Origin: Bugula neritina
Taxonomy: Eukaryota; Animalia; Bryozoa
Reading direction: 5' to 3'
Assembly (NCBI GenBank): GCA_964035545.1
Contig: OZ037772.1
Coordinates: 7,982,889 to 8,046,888 of the forward strand
DNA: 64,000 nucleotides
Shown: piece after piece, positions 56,601 to 61,287 of the stretch
Numbering within the stretch: position 1 is the first letter of the stretch
Layout of the letters: each line of letters starts with the position of its first letter
The notes under the pieces: generated by a model
What the model was told of the DNA's origin: nothing
The model's input: only the letters and a program-made list of their open reading frames with translations
The model's database searches: none
Position numbers and translations under genes: made by a program

Positions 56601-59600
56601 TCATAGTCAATGTTACAATAGATTTACCGGAAGGACTCCATTTGTAATGCATTCAGTAAATAACCTCTTAACGTCTTCAAAACGATTTAAACCTGAGTGA
56701 ATGCCAGTCGAGTTTAAATTTCTTCTTCATTTTAAAATTTTACAATTCTTAAAAATGTATCGAAACTTCTAATTTGCAAGCTAGTGTGCTAATCATTTAT
56801 ATGCTATGGGAACCATTGAGAGACAACAGTACCATTTAATTTACAATTTACTAGATTTAACTACTGTAATGATACAAGGAAACGTTTTACTGAAGTTGTC
56901 CTCCTTTGATTAGATCTTGTTAGAGCTTCTACAGGGCATCTAAAGCCACTAACTAATTTCAACCTATGCTTTAGGAAGTGTGTGCCATGTGCATGTAGAT
57001 CTCATTGTATTATGCTGCAGGAGATGGTGACAAGGAGACCACAACTCCAAAATTAGAAGTGCCTCTCAGCACATCAAATTTGGCAGATTTTTTCATAATG
57101 TCAAGGTAAGAGCCGTATGGCTGTAATTTCACATAGTATATTAATGTCTCTCAGTTACCATGTAGGGTGATAGTTCAAATGGGTATCACGCGAGACCAGA
57201 ATCTAAATAATAAAGTGTTGTATCTTGCTTTTTTTATGTGAAAATGTAAAATGGTTGATTCTGCATTGACTGCACTCACTATAACAACTGGCTGTTTTAC
57301 AATCAAGCGCATTCTGATGTGTCAATCAAAAAGATGACTAAGAAAATAAGTGCATTAACTTTTCACATAATCAGTAAAACAGATATACACACTTAGCCAG
57401 CATATAACATAAAGCACACCAGTGTAGCTACTGTAACCAACAATTCACTTTTAGTCAGGGTTATCTATTCTAACTTCACACACCAATAATCTTTCTCTAA
57501 GTATTCTTTAATTTTTTCGTGACTTTCAAGTTTTGTCTCGCGCCTGAACGATACCGTCTTTATAAGTATTCACACAATACAGCTTGCATTGGATTTTATG
57601 GGTTCGCCCGCTTGTTGTAAATGTTATTTTTTATTTATAAAGAGCACTTTCAGGTTTCATACACGTAGGCCACAACTCTATAACCGAAAGCCCGACCTAT
57701 CAAGCTAAGTGTAGCGAGTTCAAAGCGTTCTGAAATGACATCTAACATATAGACGATTAAATTCATAATATAATTATAGTTATATTACAAATCCAAGTTT
57801 TGTAAAAATGCACGAACTAACACAATAATGCTGTCTGGTAGAGTGGCAGCTAAAGCAGAAAGCAATCTAAGTTGCCTGAACTACGTAGAGACTAGATGCA
57901 GCACTACCTATTACTGCGGCACACCAATTGGCAAAGCTCTCATTGATTACGGTAAGTCATTAAATTCTTGGTTTAGAAAATACATTAATTTGCAATTACT
58001 TTATGTTATAGCGCAGTGTGGCAAATGGTAGTATTAGGGTCATTTTACTTAATTTAGTACGCACTGGAATGGTAATGAACATGACTTTTTGCCCAAAACT
58101 AGTAAAACACCAAAATAATTAAGGTTCTTCTTAATTTTGCTTGATTTCCCATGATTTTTCTTATTTATTTAGCTTATTAGGAGTTCGGATCGTTACAAAA
58201 AAACCGTAACGCCCGTAACCAACAGTAGCTGAATAATTAAGAAAAAACATAGGAAATGAAGCAAAATTAAAAATAACTTTAATTATGAAGGTGTATTTAT
58301 TGGTGTTTTACTAGCTTCGATCAAAAACCTATGTTCGCTAACAGTTATATGGTGAAAATAGCTAAAAACTGAAGATATCCAGTGTGTACTAAATTAAGTA
58401 AAATGACTCATTATTGTTGTACTTTAACATACACGCAAATTTATAATCACTATCTCTGTGAGAAACCCCTTATGGAAAGGTTTTTAATCCGATCTAAGGA
58501 CTTATTCATATGTGGCACAAAAATATTTATGGCTGATGCCCTTTCTAACATCACCAACGGCTAATTTTACTGGAGTTCGAACCCATGACTTTCTGTTTAT
58601 TAAGCCCTAGACCATTTCCTGTTATACTTTAAAAACTATTAGTTATTTTCCTTCCTTAGTTACTTTCTCGGTTGAAGAGCACAACTCCAAACTGCTATCT
58701 CTATTGGCACTGAACTCTTTATAGTTCAAATTATTTCTAGTAATTCTCAATTAAATTACTTTCCATTCTACAGAAGCTACCAATGTTTGAACTCTCACGA
58801 TTCTACGGAGCCCAGCAATGCTTAAATTGTATATTTATATAGATCTTCAGTGAATCAATAGTATTTGAAATATTATAAAACAAAAATATGTTTTCTATGT
58901 GCTAAAAGCATTGTGGGAGTTGCAATTCGAAACAGTTATTTTATTGAGGAATATCACGTCGGTACTACATAATTTCTTTGCTATTTAAAGTCAAAGTAAT
59001 ATACCTGTCTTTAACAAACCATCCATTATAGGGACCAGCCACTGTCTAAGGGTTAGAGTGTTGGGCTAGCAAATACGAAATCATGGGTTCAAACCCATGA
59101 CAAAAGTCATTAGTGATGTTAAAAAGAGCATTCAGTCATAATTGCTCCTGTGTCACATGTGAATAAGTCTTTAGCTCAATTTAACAAAAGAGACTCTTTC
59201 TATTAGAGGTTTTCTCACTGGGATGGTGACTATAAACTTGCGAGAGTGAGTTTTTTTCTTTAACAAATCATTCATATTTACTCTCAAAGGAGATGCCATT
59301 GCCCGCACAGACAACTATGTGAAGTTGCTGATGAAAGTCATAGAGCAGATTGGACATTCTGGCAAAAGTCACAACACTTTGGATAAACTGGTCCGGTCTC
59401 ATATCCTACTTCCGGGCACACAGCTTGTGTTTGATAGAGTCATAACAGTAAGCTGTGCTTTCTTTGTTTCTGAGCTCAGTTGTTGAAGTGACGTGAAACT
59501 ATCTACTGAAGTTGTCTTCTTTGGATGTGTACCTAAGGGTGTATACTGAGCTGACCTGGGGTTATAATGCAGTAGACTTGTACATACTGATATTACTTAC

Positions 59601-61287
59601 TGGGGTGACCTGAGGCTATAATATAATAGAGTTATATACTTGCGTCACCTAGGGTTTTATTAGGCTGACCTGGGGTTACTTACTAGTATGACCTGGAGCT
59701 ACCTACTATGGTGACCTGGGGTTGCCTACTAAGTTGACCTGGGATCAACTACTAGGGTGATGTTATTGGGTTGACATCATGTGCTCATTCTCAGATTTTT
59801 GTTTAAATTATTTTACTTTTGTTGCTTCAAACAATTTGAAAATAAAACTCTTAGAATAAAGGTTGACACAAATATACTTGTATCAACCTATAAAACTGTT
59901 AGCTCTGCACAACATCTGGATATATGTTATGTAGACTATGTACCTGGTGATCCAGGCATAATACTAAATATAATAGTATATATGAAATAATATATATTTT
60001 GCATATAAAATCACATATATTATTATCCAAGTATATAAAATAACCTAATATCTTCGCTGTATATATAATGTTATATTATATAAAAAATATATAATATTAT
60101 GTGTAATATATAATGTTTAGGCTACATCACATATCATATATATATACTGTTTACTTCATATTGCAACATACAAATACTATCTATATATTACGCATATTAT
60201 ATTATATTATATTATAAATGTGTATATATATATTATATAATAATATAATATATAGCATAATATATATAATTAATATATAGTATTTGTGTATTTTATTAAA
60301 AACTACATTTTGTTCTGTTATATGAGCTGTACTGTATAATAGTTTAATAATAATATGGTATATGATATATAATAATATATAAAATGTAATATACACATCA
60401 TATATATATATATATATATATATATATATATATATATATATATATATATATATATATATATATACATATATATATATATATATATATATATATATATATA
60501 TATATATATATATATATAATATACACATTATACATATAATATACACATTATATATAAATACATATATTGGATTATTCAGATGCTGTTGCTAATCTCCGAT
60601 CTGATTATCATGGAACTCTACAGATCTGGGAAAGCGATGGCGTCATACGAGGCACAATGCAAAGATTTCCTATTTGTCTTGGTAGACGATACTGTTCTGG
60701 TGAAAGGCTGGGTAAGAGAGCTCTCTTATCTACTACTAGTTATGCTATACTCACACTACAACTAACAGTATATATGCTTAGCTATTAGTTTGTATTGTTG
60801 GTTAGTTGTAGTGTGAAGAAGCCTTTAAACTGTACTCATATTATCTGAATTAGTTGCTGTCTTACAAAAAAAAACTCACACAAGTTTATAGTCGCTATCC
60901 CTTTTATAAGAAAACCCTGATGAAAAGGGTTTTTGTTAAAGCTGGCTTATTCACATGTAGAAAAGAACCAATTATGACTGTATGCTCTTTTTAACATCTC
61001 CAATGGCCTTTAAGCTGGGGTTTGAACCCATGACTCCTTGTTCACCAAGCCAAAAGCTCTAACCCCTAGACCACACCTGCTCCTTAGTTAATGCTTTGTT
61101 CTATAATTGTGTTTCAATACAGGAAGATTTGGCAAAGAATAGCAAGTTTTGGGTAGACAGGACTGATTTTGACATTATGGAAAATCTGGCGTTTATAGAT
61201 TTGCCTCCCTCTACTAAGGCTCTTCGAACGGCCAATCAGCAGACTCTCCCTCTGAGGTCAAGGCCAAGAGATATAGCAACAATATAG
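53630..61287 (+). CDS. Gene F: compact tandem double Bcl-2-like-domain protein, ~470 aa
   Basis: join 53630-53763, 54589-54695, 54999-55174, 55507-55680, 56263-56434, 57021-57105, 57842-57951, 59290-59447, 60580-60711, 61123-61287. BH3-like IGKALIDYGDAIAR; BH1-like HTDRVLM and VFDRVIT; BH2-like VKGW|EDL with a phase-0 intron after W. AATAAA at ~61452. Confidence 0.85.
53792..53877 (+). mobile_element. tRNA-derived short repeat (family 1)
   Basis: TTAACCCAGTGGTCTCC..AATGGTTAGCG..GGGTTCAAATCCCAGTAGGG. Confidence 0.7.
54127..54435. mobile_element. MITE-like element with inverted arrays of ~15-bp subterminal repeats around a G-rich core
   Basis: GGTAAAAATGRCRC units on the left, TGCCATTTTTAC units on the right, degenerate TTAGGG-like centre. 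Confidence 0.6.
54780..54963 (+). mobile_element. SINE family 2 copy
   Basis: Match to the family consensus. Confidence 0.7.
55718..55800 (+). mobile_element. tRNA-derived short repeat (family 1)
   Basis: CAGTGGTCCCTGTAGTGTAATAGTAGCAC..GAGTTTGATTCTCAGTGAGGG. Confidence 0.68.
58037..58409. mobile_element. Foldback MITE (same family as 17876-18293)
   Basis: GGGTCATTTTACTTAATTTAGTAC..GTACTAAATTAAGTAAAATGACTC. Confidence 0.85.
58430..58613 (-). mobile_element. SINE family 2 copy
   Basis: Reverse-complement match to the family consensus. Confidence 0.72.
59030..59250 (+). mobile_element. SINE family 2 copy (near full length)
   Basis: GGGACCAGCC..GGGTTCAAACCC..GTGACTATAAACTTGCG. Confidence 0.82.
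59540..59775. repeat. Degenerate ~20-25 bp tandem repeat (TGACCTGGGGTT..ACT)
   Basis: Direct observation. Confidence 0.7.
60400..60518. repeat. (TA)n microsatellite within an AT-rich low-complexity tract
   Basis: Direct observation. Confidence 0.93.
60874..61083 (-). mobile_element. SINE family 2 copy
   Basis: Reverse-complement match to the family consensus. Confidence 0.78.

Follow-up and report, generated by a model that had tools for sequence, protein, structure and literature searches.

The locus and its six genes

The stretch considered here, 64,000 nucleotides of the bryozoan Bugula neritina (assembly GCA_964035545.1, contig OZ037772.1, positions 7,982,889 to 8,046,888) that we call the window throughout, is AT-rich animal DNA with spliceosomal introns. 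It holds a cluster of six related forward-strand genes, A to F, modelled between positions 10082 and 61287 by reading the sequence and testing exon edges (Table 1). Five of the six genes encode two copies per chain of a domain of 130–170 residues and gene C encodes one; the resulting 11 copies are named here by gene and order, F2 being the second domain of gene F. The cluster is real and unannotated, and its domain is probably a variant of the Bcl-2 fold.

Table 1. Modelled genes of the cluster and exons of gene F (window coordinates)
Feature	Position	Strand	Description
Paralog A	10082..16090	+	9 exons, 606 residues, two domain copies
Paralog B	19114..25381	+	9 exons, 736 residues, two copies, repetitive tail
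Paralog C	26494..30862	+	5 exons, 715 residues, one copy and a long low-complexity last exon
Paralog D	31432..38386	+	9 exons, 816 residues, two copies; NWIW junction at 37281
Paralog E	46690..52565	+	9 exons, 721 residues, two copies; NGIW junction at 51775
Gene F model	53630..61287	+	10 exons, 452 residues, open frame, 9/9 introns GT-AG
F1 exons	53630-53763, 54589-54695, 54999-55174, 55507-55680, 56263-56434	+	open spliced frame
F exon 6	57021..57105	+	BH4/alpha1-like segment LADFFI, then the common phase-2 intron; outside the interval noted earlier (57900..61140)
F exon 7	57896..57951	+	first part of BH3-like helix; last base is the first of the Gly codon (phase 1)
F exon 8	59290..59447	+	remainder of BH3-like helix, alpha3/alpha4-like helices, BH1-like FDRVIT; phase-0 intron after
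F exon 9	60580..60711	+	hydrophobic alpha5-like helix to BH2-like VKGW; phase-0 intron after TGG
F exon 10	61123..61287	+	EDL... to stop

Predicted junctions of this kind rest on GT-AG signals, reading frame and agreement between paralogs, and it is conceivable that the chains of exons are wrong in part or that the genes are decaying copies, the junction motifs then being products of modelling. The edges of some exons (B exon 2, E exon 5) were indeed picked to keep the frame, and no full-length homolog was found (a word-index search with F exon 3, whose query starts with some 20 codons in an intronic repeat, gave 0 of 22 candidates). Intron 3 of gene A, moreover, has a GG donor (11727-11728; GGAAGT, where paralog B has GTAGGT), to be read as a donor changed by mutation, as a rare type of site or as an error of the assembly. 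We nevertheless consider such an origin of the motifs very improbable: GT-AG borders are present in 44 of the 45 modelled introns of genes A to F, all six models are open frames without internal stops, and the same four intron phases recur in 11 of 11 copies. Between A and B, which are 49% identical over 458 codons, differences are distributed 153/124/211 across codon positions, the third-position excess expected of selected coding sequence. A sequenced DNA run spans 30 of 30 bins of 40200-60190 with no difference listed within the F exons it covers; since the run may derive from the source sample, it checks the letters only and does not bear on splicing. Metagenome contigs (P0002-P0005) contain exons nearly identical to those of C, D and F (90-95% across the part that aligns, with a near-identical copy of F exon 3 in protein P0002), from which it follows that a close relative carries the cluster, and the homologous C and D exons stay open in the metagenome proteins, with at most 3 mismatches in 57-59 columns.

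A repeated domain with common introns

Identity between most copies is 15-30%, and blastp links F2 to E2 (E 1e-8), F1 to D1 (E 3e-9) and D1 to D2 (E 0.001), with only A1+B1 and A2+B2 resolved in a domain tree (two of eight inner branches). Four intron positions and phases are common to all 11 copies: phase 2 after a helix resembling Bcl-2 homology motif 4 (BH4), phase 1 within a BH3-like helix, and then two of phase 0, one immediately past an xxDR motif and one at the BH2-like end. The phase pattern had also raised the idea of a globin repeat, which was dropped: the spacing does not match the positions of globin introns, and Pfam gave no match.

Gene F, with an AATAAA at 61452 on its 3' side, comprises F1 and F2, a short linker and a 54-residue last exon without a hydrophobic anchor by hydropathy. 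The first-pass annotation of this DNA had placed a phase-0 intron directly after the Trp of VKGW/EDL (a slash marks the intron) in F2 and the same junction in D2 and E2, and in this it was right: VKGW occupies 60700-60711 and is followed by GTAAGA, the acceptor reads ...ATACAG/GAAGAT at 61123, and the counterparts are NWIW/GTAAAT and NGIW/GTTTGT, both phase 0. As gene-structure support for homology, however, the junction amounts to one piece of evidence and not three, because D2, E2 and F2 are paralogs; TGG precedes 3 of the 22 phase-0 introns, that is, those of 3 of the 11 copies. The BH3-like motif of F2 is likewise encoded (IGKALIDY/GDAIAR), but the same annotation had omitted the phase-1 intron (57952-59289) that splits it within the Gly codon; IGKALIDYGDAIAR is absent from all six frames and arises only by splicing. 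An alternative tandem acceptor 3 nucleotides downstream (GAG) would remove this Gly, AAG being the more usual type of acceptor site.

The last exons are of low complexity and often repetitive, and hydropathy indicates a C-terminal membrane anchor in none of the six proteins: values for the last 60 residues are at most 0.47, versus 1.51-1.99 in five Bcl-2 proteins, and in five of the six the alpha5-like segment holds the 19-mer of highest hydrophobicity. Tails and linkers of B, A and E contain short tandem peptide repeats (24900-25170, 15780-15900, 49690-49860 and 52220-52410) with many Ser-Pro sites beside Lys, possibly sites of phosphorylation.

Motifs and spacing against a Bcl-2 reference

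Scanning metagenome contigs with a BH1 pattern provided a reference of 117 loci, of which 53 were discarded before counting as their pattern was not that of Bcl-2, leaving 64 that are Bcl-2-like. The contigs are unlabelled and the loci look to be mostly coral and fish sequences; the set includes no identified Bok, Bcl-rambo, Bcl-G or Bfk, and 0 of the 117 loci have DNA in common with the window at E<1e-8. An alignment of 23 reference sequences finds 216 PDB sequences at E<=1e-5, and the top 60 are without exception Bcl-2/Bcl-xL; the set is accordingly sound. In 51 of the 64 Bcl-2-like loci (37 distinct peptides) the BH2 Trp is followed by GT, the remaining 13 ending at that Trp or continuing as if spliced, and in 48 of the 51 the reading is open in a single frame from BH3 to BH2 under a loose pattern (in L178 probably wrongly). 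Intron placement after the Trp codon, splitting BH2, is established in PMC7527217 and PMC8998228, and the earlier statement that a phase-0 intron after BH2 GGW is common to many Bcl-2 family genes holds on both counts.

Within the copies, motif-like windows follow one another in the order BH4, BH3, BH1, BH2. When anchored on the introns, BH1 windows rank in the top 4% in 11 of 11 copies and BH3 windows in the top 5% in 8 of 11, and all four windows fall within the top 3.3% for F2 (1.3%, the BH4 score of exon 6, then 1.0%, 0.1% and 1.7%) and E2 (3.3%, 0.5%, 0.6% and 0.4%). A phase-0 intron stands at the position of the BH2 Trp. Counted from the BH1 Arg position, it lies 47-52 residues on in 10 of 11 copies (61 in F1), and in 30 of 30 Bcl-2 proteins the BH2 Trp follows the BH1 Arg by 47-52 residues, a correspondence that represents one event since the copies are homologous. 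The motifs themselves are degenerate: the BH1 Gly column holds Asp in 11 of 11 copies, with Arg kept in 7 and Trp in none; L-x3-G-D is found only in F2 and A1; and of W-x-x-x-x-G-G-W the final Trp is present in D2, E2 and F2, the upstream Trp only in E2 and one residue off. Four of the six first domains (A1, B1, D1 and E1) have a Trp three residues past the BH2-position intron, at the start of exon 5, possibly an alternative BH2 register.

Profile searches and their limits

The strongest signal comes from the family as a whole. A profile of the 11 copies aligned with Bcl-2 profiles over 88 columns (E 0.0064, probability 5.9%) and, in a second run, over 92 columns (E 0.0013, 18.4%), spanning BH3 through alpha6 and in both runs setting YG-D on the G-D of BH3 and FDRV on WGRI. 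The second-run score of 26.0 compares with 11.4 for the reversed profile, and 100 block shuffles reached no more than 21.3; that of the first run was exceeded by none of 150 column-shuffled and one of 150 block-shuffled profiles; reversed profiles gave E 0.23 and 0.37. Removal of F2 left E 0.0058 and 0.002 in the two runs. The local alignment ends before BH2, and the Trp match therefore rests on spacing. In the reciprocal direction, a family hidden Markov model (HMM) ranked all 793 decoys below two Bcl-2 proteins, which scored only about 7 bits.

Several results weigh against Bcl-2 ancestry. Firstly, subsets of the family lose most of the signal (A-C, E 0.098; D-F, E 0.033), and E 0.0013 holds for one pair of profiles and would become about 30 for a library the size of Pfam. 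Of the two best reciprocal matches, one is partly out of register, forward sequences beat their reversals in only 17 of 24 Bcl-2 proteins, and many of the 793 decoys are non-coding frames rather than helical proteins. Secondly, smaller units retrieve nothing of the family, with no Bcl-2 match for single exons against Pfam, for exon profiles against PDB sequences or for an exon profile against 1.84 billion representatives, and only E 0.28 and 0.65 for exon profiles against a Bcl-2 alignment. Thirdly, the motif anchors were set after looking at the sequences, and the motifs score poorly: the best BH1 reaches 8.3 against a canonical minimum of 40.9, lacking NWGR; BH2 windows reach 3.0 in F2 and 8.8 in E2 against 26.1; the BH2-like Trp is missing in 8 of 11 copies; and BH3-to-BH1 spacing is 47-55 residues against mostly 45 in Bcl-2. 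Finally, the BH3 and post-BH1 introns of the window were not seen in the canonical metagenome loci, in a scan that favours uninterrupted genes, and no Bcl-2 exon ending just past BH1 was found by eye among the 53 discarded loci.

The search of 1.84 billion representatives returned four matches, three of them near-identical single exons and the fourth a repeat protein judged false. Folded single exons are helical at low confidence (mean predicted local distance difference test score, pLDDT, 64), with no fold match at E<=0.001.

Such results would also be expected of an unrelated all-helical repeat in which BH-like motifs and a Trp before the intron arose by chance among amphipathic helices. No library searched gave a significant match, single copies reach hhalign E 0.003-0.34 mostly over short matches, NWGR and GGW are absent, and a Trp precedes the intron in only 3 of 11 copies, four first domains carrying it three residues further on instead. 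We judge this unlikely, if still deserving of weight, given that two alignments recover the same register over about 90 columns, above reversed and block-shuffled controls, and that the BH1-to-intron distance fits in 10 of 11 copies independently of any Trp.

The place of F2

F2 had been singled out as the clearest link to canonical Bcl-2 proteins, a claim that comparison with its own paralogs does not support. Against a 30-sequence Bcl-2 HMM it scores -1.0 bit, tenth of the 11 copies (the best reaches 3.9 bits) and equalled or beaten by 34 of 200 shuffles; its hhalign matches to Bcl-2 (E 0.10 and 0.15) cover only 18 and 9 columns; and its best pairwise score is equalled or beaten by 86 of 100 shuffles, the worst result of the 11. 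Nor is the statement that its BH3 is near-textbook supported: this segment scores 3.2, below the lowest canonical value of 6.7 and below E2 (5.5), D2 (9.2) and A1 (13.4), the last having the best BH3 of the copies. Two outcomes had been named beforehand as counting against the link, and they divide: F2 finds no Bcl-2 profile, but its Trp does fall at the canonical BH1-to-BH2 distance. F2, in which alone L-x3-G-D is combined with a GW preceding the intron (E2 being comparable in its anchored windows), is a good illustration rather than the statistical bridge to Bcl-2; the connection is weak and owed to the gene family as a whole. The narrower claim of F2 as best bridge is only partly right and matters little.

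Other features of the window

Between D and E an unrelated gene (40600-44400, +) has a weak NHL-repeat match (E 1.5e-4), a Thr-rich stalk and a hydrophobic segment, and probably encodes a membrane protein. Downstream of F, an open frame of at least 488 codons (62537-64000, +) runs off the window; an acidic Ala/Ser/Thr-rich start is followed by apparently two related beta-rich repeats, presumably scramblase/Tubby-like, and the frame has no match in Pfam or PDB sequences. On the reverse strand, exons of a secreted-type gene (1429-7400; PAN, E 7e-7, and weak F5/8-type matches) are interrupted by a retroelement, a non-LTR-type (long terminal repeat) reverse transcriptase remnant at 3353-5170 in two open stretches (RVT_1, E 1e-34). 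High-copy short interspersed repeats occupy introns at 41570, 50900, 53100-53290, 58200-58560 and 59100-59200, where contig depth in the DNA run rises to about 60,000 compared with about 110.

Interpretation

Taken together, the reading we prefer, with a probability of roughly 0.55, is that the repeated domain is a highly diverged Bcl-2 fold and that the proteins are soluble binding modules or decoys, not membrane-anchored death switches. Its two parts differ in strength: judged from sequence, homology of the domain family to the Bcl-2 fold is likely, and given that fold, a non-canonical role has an even chance. Since neither the profile searches nor BH1 reach what canonical members show, the domain is not filed here as a member of the Bcl-2 family.

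A single multi-intron Bcl-2 gene of Bok/Bax/Bak type may have been duplicated internally and then in tandem. Each domain would form an alpha1-alpha8 bundle around a hydrophobic alpha5, with a groove to which BH3 peptides would not bind in the normal manner; opposite the BH1 Gly in the alignment stands the invariant Asp, and PMC8998228 describes loss of that Gly as making a functional BH3 groove unlikely. The proteins would presumably be cytosolic, binding partners on other surfaces or through disordered tails, like Bcl-G and other atypical members. Since each chain carries two folds and lacks an anchor, its simplest role would be that of a soluble binding module or decoy.

It is also conceivable, though improbable, that these Bcl-2 folds are still apoptotic and act as BH3 donors in the manner of Bid, cleavage of a linker or unfolding exposing the BH3 of F2 or A1 to pro-survival Bcl-2 proteins. 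Bid, too, has no membrane anchor and long linkers, as these proteins have long low-complexity ones, and F2 and A1 retain L-x3-G-D, 6 of 14 residues being identical to the best canonical BH3. The motif is nevertheless lost in 9 of 11 copies, and F2 has Ile rather than Arg after the Leu, with a score under the canonical minimum.

Returning to the preferred reading of a diverged fold in soluble modules, tandem expansion with such low identity between copies resembles immune or stress gene clusters. One may tentatively suggest, at somewhat less than even odds, an undescribed architecture: a fast-evolving, lineage-specific cluster encoding two Bcl-2 folds per chain, with closed grooves and no anchor, invisible to Pfam and serving as immune- or stress-triggered decoys or BH3 donors. 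If so, invertebrates have more Bcl-2 proteins than are now counted, and members overlooked by profiles can be recovered from the position of an intron. Confirmation of the fold would establish a tandem-domain Bcl-2 variant overlooked by standard annotation and a testable case on the non-apoptotic roles of this fold.

Comparison with known Bcl-2 systems

With the family of multi-motif Bcl-2 proteins (PF00452; Bcl-2, Bcl-xL, Bax, Bak) the copies have in common motif-like segments in the order BH4-BH3-BH1-BH2, domain length, a hydrophobic central helix and a phase-0 intron at the BH2 position. They differ in lacking a significant profile score, in having xxDR with an invariant Asp in place of NWGR, in a GGW that is reduced or lost, in occurring twice per chain with three extra introns in the domain, and in the absence from their proteins of a C-terminal anchor, a feature of many but not all multi-motif members.

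Atypical members, among them Bfk, BCL2L12 and Bid as well as Bcl-G, have degenerate BH motifs and a single Bcl-2 domain. Phrase searches of open-access literature listings turned up no account of a natural protein with two, and none of the 14 longer Bcl-2 proteins returned (fusions and long isoforms) was named or annotated as two-domain, in a weak, crowded search that covered names and annotations. Bok, whose BH3 is probably split in phase 1 at the Gly, a subject on which literature searches gave no paper, has recognisable BH1 and BH2, a membrane anchor and one domain, whereas the copies described here are degenerate, anchor-free and in tandem. The likeness to Bok lies in gene structure: according to PMC8998228, mammalian Bok has a BH3 split over two exons together with the BH2 intron, as do the copies.

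Bcl-G (BCL2L14) shares the degenerate BH motifs and offers a precedent for a non-apoptotic role, having been described, in PMC3481120, as not binding other family members and binding the TRAPP complex instead. Loss of the BH1 Gly, as in the window copies, has precedents in Trichoplax Bcl-2L4 and mouse Boo, for which PMC8998228 considers a functional BH3 groove unlikely or its selectivity altered; Trichoplax Bcl-2L4 has a membrane anchor (PMC7527217). Both are easily recognised single-domain proteins, in which respect they differ from the tandem, highly diverged domains of this cluster.

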